DNA of 64,000 nt from IMG/VR virus record IMGVR_UViG_3300027782_004428, positions 1 through 64,000 of that record; one strand, written 5' to 3'. The number at the start of each line of letters is the position of its first letter. The stretch's first letter is position 1. The DNA is from a virus. The notes below the pieces were generated by a model that was given only the letters and a program-made list of their open reading frames with translations, was not told where the DNA came from and ran no database searches. A program made the translations under genes and the position numbers. Positions 28,613 to 39,039 of the stretch are shown one piece after another.

Positions 28613-29851
28613 ATGAAAAAAATTGGATTTATTGGTATCGGCAAACTAGGACTTGACTGCGCGGAAGTTATGGCAGAGAAGCACGAAGTCAGAGGCTACG
28701 ATATTTACCCGCGCACTAGCGACTCAGTAAAAGTTTGCGATATTGATGAATTGGTCAATGAAAGCGAATGGATTTTTATTGCTGTGCCTACCCCACATGC
28801 TGAAGGTTATGATGGGTCTGTGCCCAGCTCACATATGGAGCCCAGAGACTTTGGTCATGATGCTGTGATCAGTGCTATCAACAGTGTCAACAAGTACGCA
28901 AAATCACCAAAGAAGGTTGTGTTAATCTCTACAGTATTACCTGGCACAACACGTCGCAAGTTTTATCCACTGTTAGACAAACAACATCAGTTCTTGTACA
29001 ATCCTTATTTGATTGCCATGGGATCAGTCAAGTGGGACATGGTCAATCCTGAGATGGTCATGATTGGTACCGAAGATGGCAACCCCAATGCACTAGCCGG
29101 CGAGTTAATTGACCTGTACAAGACCATGATGGTAAATGATCCTCGCTATGAAATTGGCACCTGGGACGAATGCGAAGCTATCAAGATCTTCTACAACACA
29201 TTCATTTCTGCCAAAGTTGGCCTGGTCAACATGATTCAAGACTTTGCACTACGTATTGGTCATATCAACGTTGACGTTGTGACAGATGCTTTGGCACGCT
29301 CAACCATGCGTATCATGGGACCTAAGTACATGACAGCAGGCATGGGCGATGCAGGCGCTTGCCACCCACGTGACAACATTGCACTGCGTTGGTTGGCCAA
29401 AGAATATGACATTGGTTATGACTTGTTTGACACAGTGATGCATGCTCGTGAAATCCAAGCCAAGAACCTTGCCATGTTCCTGGTTGAACAGGCCAAACAA
29501 CACAGCATGAGCATTGTGATTCACGGCAAGGCCTACAAACCTGATGTTGAATATTGTATTGGATCATACTCTACGCTGGTAGGACACTATGTTAAACAAG
29601 CAGGACATGATGTGAGATATCTTGACCCATTGGCAGATGATCCTGCTGACGTTATTTCAGAATTGGCTGGTCCTGTGGTCATCCTGTGGGCACACAATCG
29701 CAAGATCACTTATGAGTACACCGGTGATCAACTTGACACATTGCCGTATTGCCCAATTCCACATGGTAGTGTGGTGGTTGATCCATGGCGTAAACTGCCA
29801 CAGATTGAGAACTTGACCGTGGTACATTATGGTAACACACGCAATTCTTAA
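28613..29851 (+). CDS. ugd: UDP-glucose/GDP-mannose dehydrogenase family protein
   Basis: GIGKLG Rossmann, IAVPTP, STVLPGT, E.IK...N, GACHPRD catalytic Cys. Confidence 0.88.
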   Translation: MKKIGFIGIGKLGLDCAEVMAEKHEVRGYDIYPRTSDSVKVCDIDELVNESEWIFIAVPTPHAEGYDGSVPSSHMEPRDFGHDAVISAINSVNKYAKSPKKVVLISTVLPGTTRRKFYPLLDKQHQFLYNPYLIAMGSVKWDMVNPEMVMIGTEDGNPNALAGELIDLYKTMMVNDPRYEIGTWDECEAIKIFYNTFISAKVGLVNMIQDFALRIGHINVDVVTDALARSTMRIMGPKYMTAGMGDAGACHPRDNIALRWLAKEYDIGYDLFDTVMHAREIQAKNLAMFLVEQAKQHSMSIVIHGKAYKPDVEYCIGSYSTLVGHYVKQAGHDVRYLDPLADDPADVISELAGPVVILWAHNRKITYEYTGDQLDTLPYCPIPHGSVVVDPWRKLPQIENLTVVHYGNTRNS

Positions 29852-30347
29852 ATATCATATTCCCAAGTTTTGGGATGATGAGTTTAAAGAACTGCTCTAC
29901 ATCAACGAACAATTCAATGATGCGGAAAGCCTCGAACGTTGGACCGCTCAGGGCTATGCCAACCGATTCACTGGAGACATGTGTGACATGCGCAGTACTC
30001 AACCTAGTTGGAATGATCGTTTTGTCAACATCTATCGTGAACTAGGTTGGAAAGATATTGGCACCAGTTACTATAGAATGGGCACAGGTACGATTCTTCC
30101 AACTCACGGTGACTTGTATTTGCGTTATGTTGACTTGTTTAATCTTCAGGGCAAAGAGCAACGCATACGCAGAGCCATTGTGTTCTTGGAAGACTGGAAA
30201 CCTGGGCATTATGCAGAATACAATAGCACGGCCAAGGTTGATTGGCGAGCAGGAGATGTAGTCGAGTGGTGTTACGATGCGCCACACATGGCTGCCAACC
30301 TTGGGCTAGAACCGAGGTACACATTACAAATCACAGGATGGGTATGA
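29829..30347 (+). CDS. 2OG-Fe(II) oxygenase-like protein
   Basis: LPTHGD (HxD), distal H in PHMAAN, R in PRYTLQIT. Confidence 0.7.
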   Translation: MVTHAILKYHIPKFWDDEFKELLYINEQFNDAESLERWTAQGYANRFTGDMCDMRSTQPSWNDRFVNIYRELGWKDIGTSYYRMGTGTILPTHGDLYLRYVDLFNLQGKEQRIRRAIVFLEDWKPGHYAEYNSTAKVDWRAGDVVEWCYDAPHMAANLGLEPRYTLQITGWV

Positions 30348-31261
30348 TTAACAGTCACGACGAGTGGAGTCCACTAAAACGCATAGTAGTAGGTTCGGCC
30401 ACCGACGCTAACTGGCCTGTAAATGATCCTGTGTTTGCCAAAGAATCAGAAAAGACAACCTGGAAAGAAACACCTGTTCCGCGTGGACCTGTGCCCCAGT
30501 GGATAATTGACGAAGCCAACGAAGACCTGGATATTCTAGCAACGACCCTGATCGGTCTAGGCGTAGAAGTAGTGCGTCCGGATCCACTCAACTTTCAGAC
30601 CCACGATGGCATGTACAATTATTGCCCACGCGACAGGCTTCTTGTACACGGCTCAACTATTATTGATCCTGCCATGATGTATCCTTGCAGGGACATGGAA
30701 TTACAATGCTATCATGACATTGCGGATGAAGCAGAAAATTATTTGTTCATGCCTCGAAACGAAGGTATGGTGTTGGATGCTGCCAACATACTGCGTCTTG
30801 GTCCCGACAAACTGTTGTATCTAGAAAGTGCCAGCGGTAACAAAGCCGCTTATTATTGGTTGCTGGCCAATTTACCAACCAACACCAGCATTGAACTATG
30901 TAATTTTTATGCCGGTGTGCATATTGATTCAACTATTGTGCCTTTGCGTGAAGGTTTGGTCATGCTCAATGCTAGTCGTGTAACATTTGATAATGTACCT
31001 AGAGTGTTTGATGGGTGGCACAAAATTTGGGTAAACGATGTGGTAGCACAAGGATTCCACGAATATCCTTATGCATCAAAATGGATTGCCATGAACATGT
31101 TGGTGGTAGATCCAAACACAGTCATATGCGACCGAAACCAAACCGAATTGATTAAAACGCTCAAAAGTTATCGATTCGAAGTGATACCTTTAGAACTACG
31201 CCATAGTCGTACACTGGGTGGTGGCTTTCATTGTGTAACACTGGATTTAGAACGCGGTTGA
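30344..31261 (+). CDS. amidinotransferase (glycine/inosamine-phosphate amidinotransferase family)
   Basis: NSHDEWSPL, YCPRD, DAAN, HIDST, GGGFHC. Confidence 0.9.
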   Translation: MINSHDEWSPLKRIVVGSATDANWPVNDPVFAKESEKTTWKETPVPRGPVPQWIIDEANEDLDILATTLIGLGVEVVRPDPLNFQTHDGMYNYCPRDRLLVHGSTIIDPAMMYPCRDMELQCYHDIADEAENYLFMPRNEGMVLDAANILRLGPDKLLYLESASGNKAAYYWLLANLPTNTSIELCNFYAGVHIDSTIVPLREGLVMLNASRVTFDNVPRVFDGWHKIWVNDVVAQGFHEYPYASKWIAMNMLVVDPNTVICDRNQTELIKTLKSYRFEVIPLELRHSRTLGGGFHCVTLDLERG

Positions 31262-32324: not shown

Positions 32325-32583
32325 TTGGATTCGAAGTGACTACAAAACTAACCCACTTAGGTTTTTCGTGGAAGTACTGGCTTGGGCTGTGTCTATTGGG
32401 TGCAGTATTACGATGGCTGCCACTGTACCTAATCCCCCTCTCGTGGTACTTTACCCTATATGGATTAGTGGTTGTGCTATGTATGCTTGGGCTAGTTGGA
32501 CTCGTCAATCGTTTGGTATGTTGGCCAACTACATCCTCTTAGTCAGTATTGACACAGTGGGCCTAATTAGAATGCTATCTTAG
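32296..32583 (+). CDS. small membrane protein
   Basis: three hydrophobic segments. Confidence 0.65.
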   Translation: MNNIFLNIFDWIRSDYKTNPLRFFVEVLAWAVSIGCSITMAATVPNPPLVVLYPIWISGCAMYAWASWTRQSFGMLANYILLVSIDTVGLIRMLS

Positions 32584-32615
32584 TAATATCATTGTAATAT
32601 ATACGCCTATAAATA
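32581..32615 (+). promoter_or_regulatory. Pho-box-like direct repeat plus TATAAATA
   Basis: GTAAT at 32583 and 32594 (11-bp period), TAAATA 32610-32615. Confidence 0.5.
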
Positions 32616-32616
32616 A

Positions 32617-32691
32617 ATGCAACCGACCACAATGATAGAGTGGCACTGGAACTCGTAACCAGTAGATACCCCAAAATTTGGGGTATTTTTT
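32617..32691 (+). ncRNA. candidate small RNA or 13-aa peptide transcript with its own terminator
   Basis: hairpins CCAC/GTGG and ACTGG/CCAGT, then terminator; also reads MQPTTMIEWHWNS*. Confidence 0.5.
32666..32691 (+). terminator. intrinsic terminator
   Basis: ATACCCCAAA/TTTGGGGTAT stem followed by T run. Confidence 0.85.
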
Positions 32692-32729
32692 GTGTCATAA
32701 AACTGTCAAAAAATCACGGTCACTAAATA
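32692..32729 (+). promoter_or_regulatory. Pho box plus TAAATA
   Basis: GTGTCATAAAACTGTCAA 32692-32709, 16/18 match to CTGTCATAAAACTGTCAT; TAAATA 32724-32729. Confidence 0.75.
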
Positions 32730-32733
32730 CTGA

Positions 32734-33396
32734 ATGAAACCCACCATAGCCCTTTTCCTGCACGACCCTAAGTGCAGTGTACAAAGCGGCAATGGGCTCA
32801 TGCGAGCCCTAGGCGATCATTACAAGTTCAAAATATTTGGTAAAAACAAATTAGAAGACGTGTTCTTTGACGACGTAGACATGATTGCTGTGCCTGGCGG
32901 CTTTGGTGATGCTGATTCATTTGAATCACTTTTTAAACACAATGCCGACCGTGTGCGACAATTTCTTGCTCGTGGCGGCCGATATCTGGGCATCTGCATG
33001 GGCGCATACTGGGCCGGCAGCGAGTATCTTGATATCTTAGATGGTGTGGATGCAGTACAGTATATCCGACGTCCCGGCACAGATACACATAGACCACATG
33101 CCAAGAACTTGCCTGTACTGTGGCGAGATCGGTATGGAAACATTGAACCTTGGAGCATGTTTTTTTATGACGGCTGTGCCTTGGTGGGCGACAAAACCAA
33201 GTTTAAGACTATGGCCACATACATCAACGGTGATGCTATGGCCATTATACAAAACAACATTGGATTAATTGGTTGTCATCCTGAAAGTGAACAATTCTGG
33301 TACGACAGTTACTCCTGGATGCGTGGTCGATATCATAGGGGTCAACATCACACACTGTTGTTGGATTTTGTGGACCAAATGTTTGTAACAAAATAG
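32734..33396 (+). CDS. class I glutamine amidotransferase-like (BPL_N-type) protein
   Basis: VPGG, GGRYLGICMGAYWAG nucleophile elbow, GCHPE. Confidence 0.8.
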   Translation: MKPTIALFLHDPKCSVQSGNGLMRALGDHYKFKIFGKNKLEDVFFDDVDMIAVPGGFGDADSFESLFKHNADRVRQFLARGGRYLGICMGAYWAGSEYLDILDGVDAVQYIRRPGTDTHRPHAKNLPVLWRDRYGNIEPWSMFFYDGCALVGDKTKFKTMATYINGDAMAIIQNNIGLIGCHPESEQFWYDSYSWMRGRYHRGQHHTLLLDFVDQMFVTK

Positions 33397-33417
33397 TAAC
33401 ACAAATATGCCTAAATA
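33383..33417 (+). promoter_or_regulatory. Pho-box-like direct repeat plus TAAATA
   Basis: GTAAC at 33385 and 33396 (11-bp period), TAAATA 33412-33417. Confidence 0.55.
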
Positions 33418-33421
33418 CTAG

Positions 33422-34216
33422 ATGCCAAAAATATACCGCAGTATTTTTATCAGTGATGTGCATCTTGGCACAAGAGACTGCAAGGCAGAAGAACTAAACA
33501 ATTTTTTAAAGCACAACTCGTGCGATACCCTGTACCTAGTGGGTGACATCATTGACGCCTGGAAGATACAACAAAACCGGTGGCGATGGAAACAAAGCCA
33601 CACCAATGTGGTACGTCGTATACTGGGTCATGCCAAACGCGGCACTCGCGTGGTATTCATAGCAGGCAATCATGATGAATTCCTGCGTCCCATGATACCA
33701 TATGGTTTTAGTTTTGGACTAATAGAGATTCAAAATCAAACTGAACACATTGGTGCAGACGGCCGACATTATCTTGTGGTGCATGGAGACCTGTTTGATG
33801 GTATCACAAGACTGGCACCGTGGATAGCATTTTTAGGAGACCGAGCATATGACTTTATTCTTGCGCTTAATAGCCGATTTAATTGGCTACTGCATCGTTT
33901 TGGTATTGGGTACTTTAGTCTTAGCCAGTACCTTAAAAAGCGAGTAAAGAAGGCTGTAGACTTTATTTTTCACTTTGAAAAAAATCTAGCCAATTACTGT
34001 CGAAAGCGCGGCTACGACGGTGTCATATGCGGACACATACATCACGCAGAAATAAAAGAGATCAACGGCGTGATTTACATGAATGACGGCGATTGGGTTG
34101 AGTCATGCACAGCACTGGTAGAACATCATGACGGTGCTTGGGAGATTGTAACATGGACACGAAAAAATGACCAAGAAGATACTGATAATAACAGACAACT
34201 TACCGGATCAGATTAA
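33422..34216 (+). CDS. plcP: PlcP-type phospholipase C (LpxH-like metallophosphoesterase)
   Basis: FISDVHLG, YLVGDIID.W, GNHDEFLR, HGD.FD, LGD.AYD, VK.AV.FI, DGVICGHIHHA, GDWVESCTAL.EH. Confidence 0.82.
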   Translation: MPKIYRSIFISDVHLGTRDCKAEELNNFLKHNSCDTLYLVGDIIDAWKIQQNRWRWKQSHTNVVRRILGHAKRGTRVVFIAGNHDEFLRPMIPYGFSFGLIEIQNQTEHIGADGRHYLVVHGDLFDGITRLAPWIAFLGDRAYDFILALNSRFNWLLHRFGIGYFSLSQYLKKRVKKAVDFIFHFEKNLANYCRKRGYDGVICGHIHHAEIKEINGVIYMNDGDWVESCTALVEHHDGAWEIVTWTRKNDQEDTDNNRQLTGSD

Positions 34217-35177
34217 TGGTGTGGTCACCACTTACAAGAACATTGAGGCTTGTGCGGTACTGGATGGTTATACTGTGGATTATATTGACCCCGGGCGGTT
34301 CCGCTATGTTGATTGTCCTGGCTACAACGAAGTCAAACTTGCCATTCCGCGGGCAATGGGCAAGAAGATCGAAGAGATTGATCCGGATCATATCCACATC
34401 GCCACAGAAGGTCCTCTTGGTCTGTGGGCTAGAAAGTATCTTTCAATATGCGATTATAGGTATAACACCGCTTATCATACTAAGTTTCCTGAAGGTCTAA
34501 AAAAGTTATTTGGTATTCCCGAAGCAGTGACTTGGCCGCTGGTGCGTTGGTTCCACAAGCATTCGGGAAAAGTTCTAACCACAACCGAAACCATGGTACG
34601 TGAATTACAATCACACGGGTTTCGGGGCGAAATTGTTCCGTGGACTCGTGGTGTAGACCGTACAATCTTTAATCCCACTCACAGACAAAAAACTATCAGT
34701 CGCTACATCTTGTGTGTTAGTCGTGTAAGTAAAGAAAAGAATCTTGAAAAGTTTCTTGAGATGGACTATCCAGGTTTCTTAAAAATCATGGTAGGTGATG
34801 GACCCATGCTGGAAACCTATCGTCGGCAGTATCCTGCGGTTCACTTTACAGGATTCAAAACAGGAGTAGATCTAGCCAAATACTATGCCAATGCCGAAGT
34901 ATTTGTGTTTCCTAGCCAGTGGGAAACATTTGGCATTGTAATGATCGAAGCCATGGCTTGCGGCACACCTGTCGCTGCATATCCATGTCAAGGCCCAGAA
35001 GATGTTATTGACGAAGGTGTCACTGGCTGTATGAATGCGGACTTAAAGCAGGCCGTCACTGATTGTTTGTTTTTGAATAGAAATCAAGTATGGTCGGGTA
35101 GTCAACGTTGGTCATGGGATCGTGCCTGGGCGATATTCAGAGACAATCTAATTCCGGCGAAGCCGAGCAAGTCCTAG
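34167..35177 (+). CDS. agt: GT4 glycosyltransferase, Agt-type diacylglycerol glycosyltransferase
   Basis: TD..P.QINGVV.T, HIATEGPLG, YHTKFPE, W.RGVD, RVSKEKNL, ETFGIV..EAMACG.PVAA; follows plcP. Confidence 0.75.
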   Translation: MTKKILIITDNLPDQINGVVTTYKNIEACAVLDGYTVDYIDPGRFRYVDCPGYNEVKLAIPRAMGKKIEEIDPDHIHIATEGPLGLWARKYLSICDYRYNTAYHTKFPEGLKKLFGIPEAVTWPLVRWFHKHSGKVLTTTETMVRELQSHGFRGEIVPWTRGVDRTIFNPTHRQKTISRYILCVSRVSKEKNLEKFLEMDYPGFLKIMVGDGPMLETYRRQYPAVHFTGFKTGVDLAKYYANAEVFVFPSQWETFGIVMIEAMACGTPVAAYPCQGPEDVIDEGVTGCMNADLKQAVTDCLFLNRNQVWSGSQRWSWDRAWAIFRDNLIPAKPSKS

Positions 35178-35855
35178 TGTTCTGAACAGGCTGAGCCACA
35201 TCCAGCCTATATCAAATTCATACCAGTTCTTAGAGAGGCGGGCACTCGCTGGGTCCAAGTGGTGGTTGTTGTGCAACTCTTCACCGCCAATAACAATACC
35301 CCAAGGCACAATATTACGACTATGATCTTTAGTTTTGCCATTTCTATATCCAATCCAATGTCCAACGCCGTTTATGACTCCGGCTGCCCAGAAAGGTATC
35401 CATATCATCTGGATGCCCCAGATTACCGGACCCCACCATCCAAACACCAAGACGTCTAGCACAAAGAGAATGCCAATGCCAAGTCTAGAGTAAGGCTGGT
35501 ATACGTGAAGCTCCATCCAATCAGCAGGAGTACCACGACCGTATGTATCAACCATAGTTTTATCTTTTGATGCCGCATGATATAGTACTGCCCCTTTAAA
35601 TAATACCTGCCATATACCGTACACATGAGGGGTATGCGGATCACCTTCCACATCACTGTATCTGTGATGCTTGCGATGTATGGCCACCCATTGCTTGGTT
35701 ACCATGCCTGTGGTCAGCCATAACCAAAATCTCATGAAATGTTCAAGTGCAGGATGAAACTCTATGCCCTTGTGGGCCTGGCCACGATGCAAATACAAAG
35801 TGACACAGACGATGGTAATGTGTGTCATTACCAATGTTGCTATTAATTCTATCAT
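35148..35855 (-). CDS. desA: membrane fatty acid (delta-9-type) desaturase
   Basis: His boxes HRGQAH, HRKHH, HNNHH; GEELHNNHH..EFDIGW. Confidence 0.9.
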   Translation of the reverse strand: MIELIATLVMTHITIVCVTLYLHRGQAHKGIEFHPALEHFMRFWLWLTTGMVTKQWVAIHRKHHRYSDVEGDPHTPHVYGIWQVLFKGAVLYHAASKDKTMVDTYGRGTPADWMELHVYQPYSRLGIGILFVLDVLVFGWWGPVIWGIQMIWIPFWAAGVINGVGHWIGYRNGKTKDHSRNIVPWGIVIGGEELHNNHHLDPASARLSKNWYEFDIGWMWLSLFRTLGLARLRRN

Positions 35856-35868
35856 TGTGTATTTAACG

Positions 35869-35888
35869 AAAAAGCCCCTCTCGGGGCT
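35869..35888 (-). terminator. intrinsic terminator
   Basis: minus strand AGCCCC-GAGA-GGGGCT-TTTT. Confidence 0.75.
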
Positions 35889-36285: not shown

Positions 36286-36564
36286 ATGTTTACAGCAGAC
36301 GCATTCATCGACACCGTTCAAACCGGTAAAAAAACTTTCGTTAACACATTCGTCACAAACGAAACCGCCAAAGAAGCAATGATCAAGTTCATTGATTCAC
36401 AAGCAGAGTACACCAAAAAGGCCGCCAAGGTTGGCATGGATGCATTCACCACAGTCACAAGCGAAGCTGTTAAGGCCGCTCAAGAAGCTACCAAATTTGA
36501 CTATGTGAAATTTGGCGAAGGCATCATGAAGGCTTACACAGCCCAAACAGCCAAAGCAAAGTAA
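36286..36564 (+). CDS. phasin-like amphipathic protein
   Basis: Ala/Lys/Thr-rich helical 92 aa, AAGGAG RBS, PhaR-like operator upstream. Confidence 0.5.
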   Translation: MFTADAFIDTVQTGKKTFVNTFVTNETAKEAMIKFIDSQAEYTKKAAKVGMDAFTTVTSEAVKAAQEATKFDYVKFGEGIMKAYTAQTAKAK

Positions 36565-36969: not shown

Positions 36970-37119
36970 ATGAAGCCCATACATTTCACACTAGCACCCG
37001 TAAAGGAACGTCGTCATCGAGCTCTGTTCGATTCGGCTCTGCCGTTCCGCGGTCGTGTGGAACGTCCCAAGACTGAGTACCGGCGCAAGCCCAAGCACAA
37101 AAATCAAGGTGAAGAATGA
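36970..37119 (+). CDS. ArfA-like ribosome rescue peptide (49 aa, not in ORF track)
   Basis: MKPIHFTLAPVKERRHRALFDSALPFRGRVERPKTEYRRKPKHKNQGEE; AL..D..FR.RVE..K..Y.RK.KH.N pattern. Confidence 0.6.
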   Translation: MKPIHFTLAPVKERRHRALFDSALPFRGRVERPKTEYRRKPKHKNQGEE

Positions 37120-37361
37120 AACTGGTTATACCTCTGTTGCTGTCACTGTTGGTAGGCTGTGCTTCACAATCTAGTACACCACCAGCGTCAGTTGCGGCCA
37201 TGCCCAATGACTGTGCCAATCGACAAGCAATTATCAATTGGCTAGAAACTCAATCCGCAATTCCTCGACAGGCCTTTGAAAGTGAAAAACACTATGAACA
37301 AACACGCTCGCAGATTCGTCACCGCTTGTGGCATGTGCGTTATAACTGTCAGCCTGTCTAG
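37116..37361 (+). CDS. lipoprotein
   Basis: lipobox LVGC. Confidence 0.75.
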   Translation: MKLVIPLLLSLLVGCASQSSTPPASVAAMPNDCANRQAIINWLETQSAIPRQAFESEKHYEQTRSQIRHRLWHVRYNCQPV

Positions 37362-38223: not shown

Positions 38224-39039
38224 ATGTTAATCAAACGTTTATCCGTGTTAGCAGTAGCCACAAGTCTTGTGGCATGTGCAAGCACCACGGCACCAAAAGC
38301 CGAAACTGCGACTCCCACTCCGGTGGCTCGTGTGGTTGAAATAGCGCCGCAAGTGGTCCCTGTGCATGCTTATGCAATGCCGGCTCGCCAGGCTCGTGTG
38401 GTGCCACAAGCACCTGAGTGGTATGTCCGCATGCCAGAAGACACCGCAGACATGACATTTGCTGTGGGTACTGCAACATCAACAGATGAGCAGATGGCGT
38501 ACGACAAAGCACGTATGGCCGCAGAGCGCAAACTAGTTGAACAAATGTATGCTAGAATCACCACACAGACCAACAGCTTCAAGGCTGATCGTGGTAGTGC
38601 TACAATTGAAAACTACCAGCAAGTCACACGCAAAAATGCACGTGGCGAACTGAGTGGCGCCCAACGTGTGGATAGTCAAGTCACACATGATGGACAATCC
38701 TACAAGGTCTATGTACTATTGCGACTGCCAGTAGGTGCCAGCAACACAATGCAAACACGTCGTGATCAACAACGTATGCAACGTGAAGGGGAAACCCGTG
38801 GTCGTGCCGCAGAGCGTGACATGGACACAAACGAAGCACGTGACGCACGAATTGAACAAGAAAATACTCGTTCACTTGAACGCAGTCTTGAACCCCAGAG
38901 CCGAGTTACCCCTGTAACTGTACCTACCACTTCGGGAGAACTTAAACTACTGGATGTTGACAACGCTGAATATCGGCAAAAACGAGCAGAAGCACTACAA
39001 AAACCAGGTGCTGTAGTAGGACAGACAGTAGTTAGATAA
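38224..39039 (+). CDS. LPP20-like lipoprotein
   Basis: lipobox LVAC; PEWY, AVG.A.S, A..KA...A...L. Confidence 0.7.
   Translation: MLIKRLSVLAVATSLVACASTTAPKAETATPTPVARVVEIAPQVVPVHAYAMPARQARVVPQAPEWYVRMPEDTADMTFAVGTATSTDEQMAYDKARMAAERKLVEQMYARITTQTNSFKADRGSATIENYQQVTRKNARGELSGAQRVDSQVTHDGQSYKVYVLLRLPVGASNTMQTRRDQQRMQREGETRGRAAERDMDTNEARDARIEQENTRSLERSLEPQSRVTPVTVPTTSGELKLLDVDNAEYRQKRAEALQKPGAVVGQTVVR

Follow-up and report, generated by a model that had tools for sequence, protein, structure and literature searches.

The locus described here lies in a stretch of 64,000 nucleotides (the window), corresponding to positions 1 to 64,000 of the IMG/VR virus record IMGVR_UViG_3300027782_004428 (90 kb, in the following G000). 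On the plus strand it comprises gat (32734-33396), coding for a 220-aa protein that according to Pfam resembles BPL_N and class-I glutamine amidotransferases, plcP (33422-34216), coding for a 264-aa metallophosphoesterase (Pfam Metallophos) and putative phospholipase C, and agt (34167-35177), coding for a 336-aa, Agt-like glycosyltransferase of family GT4 (Pfam). The gene des (35148-35855) on the minus strand encodes a 235-aa, DesA-like acyl-lipid desaturase, as judged from NCBIfam and Pfam matches. The plcP and agt frames overlap by 50 nt (34167 start versus 34216 end), and the convergent desaturase frame runs 30 nt into the 3' end of the GT4 gene; the plcP-agt overlap and the convergent desaturase had been noted in an initial annotation that interpreted the region as a phage-encoded, Pho-box-linked locus for membrane lipid remodelling. 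All four open reading frames (ORFs) are intact and located where that annotation had placed them, and the Pfam and NCBIfam matches agree with their labels. Collectively, the sequence comparisons presented here support the existence of a real, widespread and mis-annotated phage module for putative lipid remodelling, with a conserved phosphate-type hybrid promoter that is common to pstS, plus a new structured RNA.

Three copies of one promoter design are found at the locus, all on the plus strand. The design consists of two GTMAYA half-sites 11 bp apart, which are followed after a gap of 10-13 nt (20-21 nt elsewhere) by the hexamer TAAATA. Promoter 1 carries the repeat GTAATA-N5-GTAATA with 11-bp period (32583-32599), a putative activator site, and 10 nt further downstream the TATAAATA box (32608-32615, with TAAATA at 32610-32615); the same arrangement occurs in L004 and L009 (L-numbers designate fetched related loci). 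It precedes a pseudoknotted RNA core (32619-32665) and the intrinsic terminator of this small RNA (32664-32694), in which an 11-pair stem (32664-32688) is followed by a T run. Directly after the terminator stem, promoter 2 starts with the Pho box GTGTCATAAAACTGTCAA (32692-32709), which is present as initially annotated and represents the putative activator site for gat; its half-sites are GTCATA (32694-32699) and GTCAAA (32705-32710), and 13 nt separate the Pho box from the TAAATA box (32724-32729), with another 4 nt between the latter and the ATG. Promoter 3 overlaps the last gat codons with the repeat GTAACA-N5-GTAACA (33385-33401), again a putative activator site, and the TAAATA box of plcP (33412-33417) follows after 10 nt, 4 nt before the ATG and without a Shine-Dalgarno sequence. 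The second 11-bp repeat that had been noted in front of plcP is therefore present, its half-sites however being located at 33385-33390 and 33396-33401 and not at 33383-33400, while the third copy of the design (32583-32615) and the coupling of every box to TAAATA had been overlooked.

Sequence relationships assign the metallophosphoesterase to the PlcP type and not to LpxH, in line with the initial annotation, and its phospholipase C activity is putative. The protein matches Pfam Metallophos (PF00149) with 43.3 bits, and the metal-ligand residues D12, H14, D42, N83, H121, H205 and H207, plus H84, are invariant in an alignment of 30 homologues. The NCBIfam equivalogs for LpxH are not reached (NF003743, 47.8 bits versus 134; TIGR01854, 36 bits versus 190.35), the identity to E. 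coli LpxH is 26% over 120 residues, and LpxH sequences from the PDB match the N-terminal half of the phage protein only (E 2e-5). An exhaustive HMMER search of 1.84 billion cluster representatives retrieved 957 relatives at E <=1e-30, the best full-length ones being about 54% identical, and the best 80 loci among GTDB species genomes encode proteins with 49-58% identity to phage PlcP; these loci belong mostly to Alpha-, Beta- and Gammaproteobacteria, including Limnohabitans, Acidovorax, Pseudomonas and Rhodospirillales. In a quick tree, a phylogeny having been proposed initially to separate PlcP from LpxH, 17 viral PlcP sequences group together as one clade (Shimodaira-Hasegawa-like approximate likelihood ratio test 99), which is set apart by a long stem from the proteobacterial sequences around it; the branch of LpxH measures about 10 substitutions per site. 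Neither this tree nor the HMMER relatives revealed a close cellular donor of the viral clade.

The second enzyme matches Pfam Glycos_transf_1 (PF00534, 85.4 bits) and Glyco_transf_4 (PF13439, 46 bits), displays the E-x7-E motif in the form ETFGIVMIE, and reaches no NCBIfam equivalog (best 58.4 bits versus a cut-off of 480). The assignment as Agt, already made in the initial annotation, is backed by its resemblance to the GT4 gene products encoded directly downstream of plcP in 53 of the 80 bacterial loci, which are 37-45% identical to the phage protein; on these grounds it is regarded as Agt-like, a putative diacylglycerol glucosyl/glucuronosyl transferase. In the accessible part of Sebastian 2016 (PMC4796936), plcP-agt adjacency is given as the commonest plcP context, called the 'type 2' arrangement. 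Since experimentally validated PlcPs are 46-47% and validated Agts 35-41% identical to each other according to the available sections of Jones 2021 (PMC8528852), the phage PlcP and Agt both fall inside the range of their families.

It has also to be considered that the metallophosphoesterase and the GT4 act on other envelope substrates such as lipid A precursors, lipopolysaccharide (LPS) or capsular/teichoic-type polymers and remodel the cell surface, serving superinfection exclusion or receptor masking and not phosphorus economy. GenBank and JGI label the viral plcP family as LpxH, and two surveys of auxiliary metabolic genes (AMGs) carried by viruses, one of them on viral metatranscriptomes of Lake Baikal, list 'lpxH' under LPS biosynthesis in their available parts, genes that may or may not belong to the present clade. 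The AlphaFold model of PlcP (predicted local distance difference test score 87.3, predicted template modelling (TM) score 0.81) displays the sandwich of metallophosphoesterases, into which helices are inserted at about residues 127-195, and its nearest solved folds, the best 24 among the matches listed, are LpxH (TM about 0.55, 19-21% identity), in a library without a PlcP structure; hence, the modelled protein would share with LpxH the calcineurin-like core and the helical cap. A gene for a nucleotide-sugar dehydrogenase is also found nearby. We nevertheless regard an envelope function as quite improbable, because the cut-offs of the LpxH equivalogs are missed widely, the agt-linked proteobacterial proteins of PlcP type are far closer (49-58% versus 26%), and the gene is co-regulated with and adjacent to pstS in relatives and in phage Mosig. 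In contrast to LpxH, to which identities amount to 19-26%, the genomic partners are agt and pstS and not lipid A genes. A search with PADLOC yielded a single 17-bit match, for PlcP, and none for the gat, GT4 and desaturase proteins, which speaks against exclusion functions and led us to drop a reading as defence system.

The initial annotation had suggested a survey of viral databases for the plcP-agt pair. A pattern scan of IMG/VR identified 224 loci with a PlcP relative, 80 of which were fetched. Their PlcP proteins are 80-96% identical to that of the window, while the identities range from 45 to 100% for gat and from 55 to 95% for agt. The agt gene follows directly downstream of plcP in 32 of the 80 loci, and 5 further loci have it at a distance of up to 2.2 kb, giving 37 loci with the pair; in 69 loci, the sequence extends for at least 1.1 kb on the downstream side of plcP. 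Furthermore, gat is present in 33 loci, pstS in 9, a gene for an Ala/Val/Glu-rich protein of 215 aa in 8, and des in 8 loci, all of which also contain agt. L018 and L023 display des, plcP and agt in this order on a single strand, and des abuts plcP in L023. Homologues were also found in cultured phages, namely in Pelagibacter phage Mosig (48% identical) and Synechococcus phage S-SRM01 (37.5%), where they are labelled as UDP-2,3-diacylglucosamine hydrolase or diphosphatase. In Mosig, plcP is the divergent neighbour of the gene for a phosphate ABC transporter binding protein, and the intergenic region between pstS and plcP (L082:4841-4992) contains TTAACA-N5-TTAACA with 11-bp period as well as TAAATA 5 nt before the plcP ATG.

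Regarding the promoter design, alignment of the 160 nt upstream of plcP displays the succession GTAAYA-N5-GTAAYA, TAAATA, 4-5 nt and ATG, without Shine-Dalgarno sequence, in otherwise unalignable sequences. When each distinct upstream region is counted once, the repeat plus TAAATA precedes plcP in 26/64 cases, gat in 6/27, pstS in 6/6 and the Ala/Val/Glu-rich gene in 4/7, compared with 0/86 for nine control families (agt, des, uvdE, ugd and five neighbours); TAAATA as such is found in 11/27 gat regions. Among the 32 plcP promoters with a TAAATA box, its distance to the start codon is 4 or 5 nt in 20. The gap between repeat and TAAATA is also restricted, amounting at plcP to 10 nt in 12 cases, to 20 nt in 11 and to 21 nt in 3, to 10 or 20 nt at pstS and the Ala/Val/Glu-rich gene, and to 13 nt (5) or 10 nt (1) at gat, so that the helical phase of the repeat relative to TAAATA is kept except at gat. 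In 908 kb of viral DNA, searched on both strands, the GTMAYA pair occurs 136 times with <=1 mismatch; 41 of these sites fall into the zone between 17 and 75 nt upstream of plcP (30 sites), the RNA (6, the copy in the window being one of them) or gat (5), identical loci being counted separately. Outside these zones 95 sites remain, for which Markov-1 shuffles predict about 82. The geometry is that of PhoB-type promoters, with direct repeats of 11-bp period about 10 bp upstream of a -10 element, replacing the -35 element. The Pho box consensus is given as CTGTCATNNNNCTGTCAT in the available part of PMC8528852. Compared with TGTCAT, the half-sites of the gat box are near-canonical, whereas plcP and the RNA have boxes with half-sites of the GTAAYA variant.

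The link to phosphate is provided by pstS. Perfect copies of the motif away from plcP led to a gene with signal peptide that was identified as pstS (Pfam PBP_like_2) and passes the NCBIfam PstS equivalogs (NF008171, 433.6 bits versus 339; TIGR00975, 398.7 bits versus 205). In these loci, the repeat and TAAATA are followed by a leader of 22-25 nt that contains AAGGAG and by pstS; directly after the pstS stop codon come the RNA and its terminator, and plcP is situated further downstream, being separated by gat in L007 and L012. In this arrangement, TAAATA behaves like a promoter element and not like a translation signal. GTAAYA and canonical GTCAYA half-sites interchange in orthologous promoters, for example in those of pstS in L041, of the Ala/Val/Glu-rich gene in L026 and L059 (CTGTCACATCACTGTCACA), and of the RNA and plcP in L067 and L081, which argues for a single reader protein. 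Moreover, the GTMAYA motif is found upstream of bacterial plcP in 12/80 loci versus 4/400 random windows at <=1 mismatch, and in 27/80 versus 10/400 at <=2 mismatches. The OmpR/PhoB winged-helix domain Trans_reg_C (PF00486) is absent from G000 and from four large relatives that were fetched via plcP (190-524 kb, three of them rated complete), hence the reader is probably a host protein. As far as these sequence data go, control of the module by host PhoB appears likely. The earlier description of the locus as Pho-linked can be kept in so far as a conserved cis design is shared with pstS of relatives, but the plcP repeat mostly corresponds to GTAAYA and not to TGTCAT. There is precedent for such control, since host PhoBR regulates cyanophage pstS and several genes of S-PM2d, as supported by PhoB gel shifts (PMC10976474, available part).

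The nature of the phage has to be taken into account before the promoter is interpreted further. The window harbours genes for a class Ia ribonucleotide reductase, an ATP-dependent DNA ligase and a clamp-loader-like ATPase, and the remaining 26 kb of G000 encode tail-fibre and baseplate-like proteins (PHROG); together with the IMG/VR classification, the reductase, ligase and tail-fibre/baseplate matches support a phage origin of the record. CheckV rates it as 26% complete, from which a genome size of about 350 kb can be estimated. A late sigma factor resembling gp55 of T4 (phrog_234, E 1e-21 to 6e-61) is encoded in 4/5 records, including 3/3 complete ones; no homologue was found in G000, which is rated as 26% complete. 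Its presence in the four relatives indicates that the group is T4-like in late transcription. At least half of the window's sampled words were detected in 14 DNA runs from 13 coded studies of freshwater, and a blastn search of the locus against INPHARED gave no match. An uncultured, tailed freshwater T4-like jumbo phage is the best explanation for the source of this DNA. Lipoprotein-type signal peptides, with a lipobox Cys after a hydrophobic stretch, occur in the ORFs at window positions 37116-37361 and 38224-39039 and point to a Gram-negative host.

Sequences of the locus were also present in RNA libraries. Short contigs with 0-1 differences cover parts of gat, plcP, agt and des in four lake metatranscriptome runs from four coded studies, and one contig bridges the gat-plcP junction and the plcP promoter (33308-33547). 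Another contig without differences (33175-33422, run X17) ends precisely on the A of the plcP ATG, an end that by itself proves nothing.

The hexamer TAAATA is under-represented in G000 (53 found versus about 75 expected). It is located 19 nt before three adjacent large ORFs in the 71.9-80.4 kb region of G000 (at 73586 on the minus and at 73633 and 76526 on the plus strand), two of which have tail-fibre/baseplate PHROG matches and the third none. At gat, plcP, des and three more ORFs of G000, 4 nt lie between TAAATA and the ATG. The sequence TATAAATA is the consensus of T4 late promoters that is read by gp55; in full length it is seen in some copies only, namely at 32608-32615 and before gat of L002 and L012. 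TAAATA is thus probably the gp55-type late-promoter core of the phage, which the initial annotation had overlooked, and the regulation is therefore probably not that of a plain host Pho promoter. Since TAAATA is positioned 4 nt before the ATG without a Shine-Dalgarno sequence, leaderless messages are predicted for gat and plcP. Five further ORFs, one of them radical-SAM-like, start 4-7 nt after TAAATA without Shine-Dalgarno sequence (window 48079, 49773, 22343 and, on the minus strand, 27009; G000 68953), which suggests a wider class of leaderless late messages. It is tempting to speculate about a phage 'Pho regulon', in which host PhoB would gate a gp55-type late core and produce leaderless plcP and gat mRNAs together with the new pseudoknotted RNA, but we consider this extended version tentative and doubtful. 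If true, phospholipid mining would be coupled to the phosphate status of the host as well as to the late programme of the phage. Alternatively, host sigma70 might use TAAATA as a weak -10 element when PhoB is bound, resulting in early phosphate-dependent in addition to late expression.

Several observations weigh against a phosphate-controlled PlcP-Agt module. The gat Pho box is the sole match in the window at <=3 mismatches (2 mismatches, 16/18 positions identical to the consensus), but 42/100 shuffles give at least one match at this threshold, and a stretch of 90 kb should contain about 1.2 matches if <=2 mismatches are permitted in the 14 half-site positions; by itself, this box is within chance. 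Its support comes from conservation and not from match statistics, because it is kept in L009 and, as GTCATA-N5-GTCAAA, in L002 and L012 despite differing flanks. The strict pattern CTGTCAT-N4-CTGTCAT was found 16 times in 818 kb of related loci versus about 11 expected, and hence the degenerate GTMAYA motif is needed. TAAATA is absent from 32/64 distinct plcP upstream regions, and 34/42 first half-sites before plcP have A instead of C at the third position (GTAAYA), which makes them similar to the boxes of other OmpR-family regulators such as CpxR. Sigma factors of the gp55 type do not possess region 4, and the usual contact between PhoB and sigma70 would accordingly be inapplicable if such a factor reads TAAATA. 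No pstS (PF12849) was found in G000 or the four large relatives, and phoH, present in 5/5 records, is not preceded by the repeat design. The comparisons of PlcP and Agt relied on the best cellular relatives of PlcP and the GT4 proteins encoded directly downstream of it, rather than on experimentally validated sequences, and the tree was a quick one and not the result of a careful maximum-likelihood search. Finally, the RNA-library contigs may derive from DNA carry-over, and they do not reveal where transcripts start and end or how abundant they are. Independently of these points, the phoH upstream regions (L166-L170) share an AAAGTCT-AATAC-like promoter block and have normal Shine-Dalgarno sequences.

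Some of these observations would also fit a model in which the enzymes act as proposed, but the repeats are read by another host regulator of the OmpR family, for example one responding to envelope stress with GTAAA-type boxes, or by an as yet unrecognised activator encoded by the phage, comparable to MotA of T4 at middle promoters. The module would then respond to the envelope state or the infection clock and not to phosphate. Most half-sites are indeed GTAAYA and not TGTCAT, the TAAATA partner resembles a phage late promoter, phoH has no boxes, and predicting Pho boxes in the genomes of phages has been described as unreliable (PMC10976474, available part). Nevertheless, a non-PhoB reader seems unlikely, given that the same design drives pstS in 6/6 distinct cases, near-canonical Pho boxes turn up in orthologous promoters (gat of the window, L041, L059, L067, L081), the motif is limited to few gene families and does not mark a temporal class, and no winged-helix regulator was found in the three complete relatives.

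The RNA downstream of promoter 1 represents a second conserved component. The predicted transcript is about 75 nt long and ends at the terminator; its 47-nt core (32619-32665) scores 64.3 bits with a covariance model built from 21 distinct copies. In 879 kb of related DNA, this model detects 24 strong matches, scoring 42-70 bits, three of them outside the seed alignment, and one weak match in S-SRM01. The structure comprises two hairpins, the second closed by CTGG/CCAG, and a 3-bp pseudoknot of the 5' tail with loop 2, with 93.9% of the cells paired. Covariation was observed at 7/11 pairs that are changed on both sides, a value not attained in 500 column shuffles (0/500), and slid controls are 28-49% paired; the sequences being related, these figures are not probabilities. 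For example, CTGG/CCAG is swapped to CCAG/CTGG in L002 and L012, and a C-G pair of the pseudoknot is changed to U-A in L067. The value of 86% pairing for hairpin 1 is an underestimate, because MAFFT and the covariance model mis-register five rows. The minimum free energy fold contains both hairpins (z -2.5), and Rfam gave no match in 32400-33500 at E <=1. By inspection, copies with their own Pho-type promoter exist in the window, L002, L004, L009, L067 and L081, while others are attached 3' to a module gene, which is pstS, agt or that for the Ala/Val/Glu-rich protein. Our best guess is a module-linked small RNA or an RNA derived from 3' untranslated regions. A second structured RNA candidate, GCCAGTGGCG...TTACTGGCG followed by a terminator, is present in L024:7908-8020 and L037:8837-8960, with the same repeat and TAAATA promoter.

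Promoter-stem-loop cassettes are a feature of T4-type phages. One may hence ask whether repeat, TAAATA, RNA and terminator are mobile regulatory cassettes at recombination joints, the connection of plcP, pstS and gat then reflecting shared mobility. In favour of this view, plcP is 80-96% identical among loci with widely differing neighbours, and the RNA with its terminator borders module genes in many contexts. However, we rate it as very improbable as a full explanation: the helical phasing of the repeat to TAAATA suggests a function at the protein-DNA level, the base-pair covariation suggests one at the RNA level, and the motif matches Pho boxes of bacterial plcP genes. Besides, mobility and regulation are compatible.

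Taking the evidence together, we favour, with somewhat more confidence than doubt, an auxiliary lipid-remodelling module in which PlcP and Agt are expressed from the hybrid phosphate-type promoter driven by host PhoB. In phosphate-starved cells, phosphorylated PhoB would bind the repeats and increase transcription from the three hybrid promoters in tandem, which serve the small pseudoknotted RNA, gat and plcP-agt. PlcP would then cleave the phosphorylated head group from host phospholipids, yielding diacylglycerol, and Agt, made from the overlapping frame, would convert it into glucosyl or glucuronosyl diacylglycerol. In this way, membrane phosphorus could be released for the infected cell while the bilayer stays intact. 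PhoB binding, the enzyme activities, the leaderless starts and the benefit for the phage are the steps that we infer here.

Phosphorus is often limiting for microbes of lakes and oceans, and a large phage genome is expensive in phosphorus. The familiar phage strategies in this regard are uptake via pstS, phosphatases and phoH. If the interpretation is correct, the phage PlcP-Agt pair represents a new strategy, in which phosphorus is obtained from the host membrane while the membrane is kept intact. Already known are the pathway in bacteria, the control of phage pstS by host PhoBR and the desaturases of cyanophages. In contrast, we found no description of a phage-encoded PlcP or PlcP-Agt in the literature, though the supplements of PMC4796936 (Table S2, GOS scaffolds) and PMC8528852 could hold viral scaffolds. 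The gene is widespread (224 IMG/VR loci plus cultured pelagiphage and cyanophage genomes), and inventories of viral AMGs probably misassign it, because it is filed as LpxH under LPS biosynthesis. Moreover, the shared promoter design provides a sequence handle for spotting phosphate-responsive phage genes, and it raises the question how a host activator works with a late-type phage promoter.

The module shares with bacterial PlcP-Agt operons, such as those with PlcP of S. meliloti, Agt of A. tumefaciens, or the pairs of SAR11 HTCC7211, P. aeruginosa (PA3219/PA3218) and B. cenocepacia (BCAL2364/2365), the same families in the order plcP-agt, a similar identity range and Pho-type direct-repeat boxes upstream. 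It differs from them by being phage-encoded, by the 50-nt gene overlap, the missing dagK, the separate clade of the viral proteins, the combination of the boxes with a TAAATA core of phage type that lies 4 nt before the ATG, and the additional partners, i.e., the BPL_N-like protein, the desaturase and the structured RNA. T4 late promoters have TAAATA/TATAAATA in common with it, and a gp55-like sigma factor in relatives as well as boxes before three large ORFs, two of them with tail-fibre/baseplate matches, add to this likeness; what distinguishes the present promoters is the phased direct repeat 10-21 nt upstream and the position of several boxes near the ATG, for which leaderless mRNAs are predicted. 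We know of no upstream activator site in T4 late promoters, and a PhoB-type regulator gating a gp55-type late core is a combination that has not been described for T4-like phages. Cyanophage genes under host PhoBR (pstS and phoA of P-SSM2 and S-PM2d; PMC10976474, available part) likewise show host Pho boxes set before auxiliary genes of T4-like phages, which thereby read the phosphate status of the host, and relatives of our phage use the design on pstS. The cargo here is however lipid remodelling and not phosphate uptake, the coupling to TAAATA is phased and fixed, PhoB binding is predicted, and the box type is proteobacterial (TGTCAT/GTAAYA) versus cyanobacterial PyTTAAPyPy(T/A).

Lipid metabolism is represented by further genes, in fact the phage carries several of them. 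The desaturase reaches 389.4 bits with the NCBIfam DesA family model NF049918 (cut-off 400), covering model positions 11-241 of 385, and does not contain the C-terminal third of the model; it matches Pfam FA_desaturase with 49.4 bits and shows the three His boxes HxxxxH, HxxHH and HxxHH. The gene has a TAAATA box on the minus strand (35860-35865), 4 nt before the ATG and without upstream repeat, and a bidirectional terminator hairpin upstream of this promoter (35873-35888). Among 8 distinct upstream regions of the desaturase, TAAATA occurs in 4 and the repeat in 0. Its membership in the switch, implied by the initial annotation, could not be upheld: without repeats and with plcP in just 8/80 loci, it is not demonstrably part of it. 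Membrane-lipid desaturases are also known as auxiliary genes of cyanophages (PMC5776448, available part), from which the present one differs by its DesA-like, proteobacterial type and its occasional inclusion in the plcP-agt operon (L018, L023). Beyond the window, at 66114-68008 of G000 (L164:2114-4008), a second fatty-acid desaturase is translationally coupled to a FabF-like ketoacyl-acyl carrier protein synthase.

The gat protein matches Pfam BPL_N with 37.3 bits and GATase with 24.4 bits and contains GICMG and HPE motifs. Its nearest ESM Atlas clusters are 94-100% viral and named BPL_N, and no gat homologue was found within 4 kb of plcP in the 80 bacterial loci.

About 3 kb upstream of the locus, the plus-strand gene at 28613-29851 encodes a nucleotide-sugar dehydrogenase similar to UDP-glucose 6-dehydrogenase (PHROG 9148, E 3e-88), which scores 135 bits with an NCBIfam subfamily of NDP-sugar dehydrogenases and remains below the cut-off of 189.8. 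It is found upstream of plcP in 10/80 related loci and has TAAATA or the repeat in 0/5 distinct upstream regions. UDP-glucuronate is one of the two donors used by Agt in bacteria (PMC8528852, available part), hence the dehydrogenase may supply it to the phage enzyme, as a loose associate outside the switch. The block at window positions 28613-31261, which consists of this UDP-glucose-dehydrogenase-like gene, a 172-aa ORF and a 339-aa ORF of amidinotransferase-like fold, is kept upstream of uvdE and the lipid module in 10/80 related loci. A phasin-like gene at 36286-36564 was considered as an additional member of the switch and rejected, because its promoter is sigma70-like and not of the Pho-type design.

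The Ala/Val/Glu-rich protein of the related loci comprises 215 aa, has coiled-coil-like ends and belongs to no Pfam or NCBIfam family (L059:7803-8450, L026:7810-8460, L064:7535-8176 and others). In the leader of its gene, downstream of the Pho-type promoter, a conserved hairpin GTGCCA-N4-TGGCAC precedes the Shine-Dalgarno sequence.

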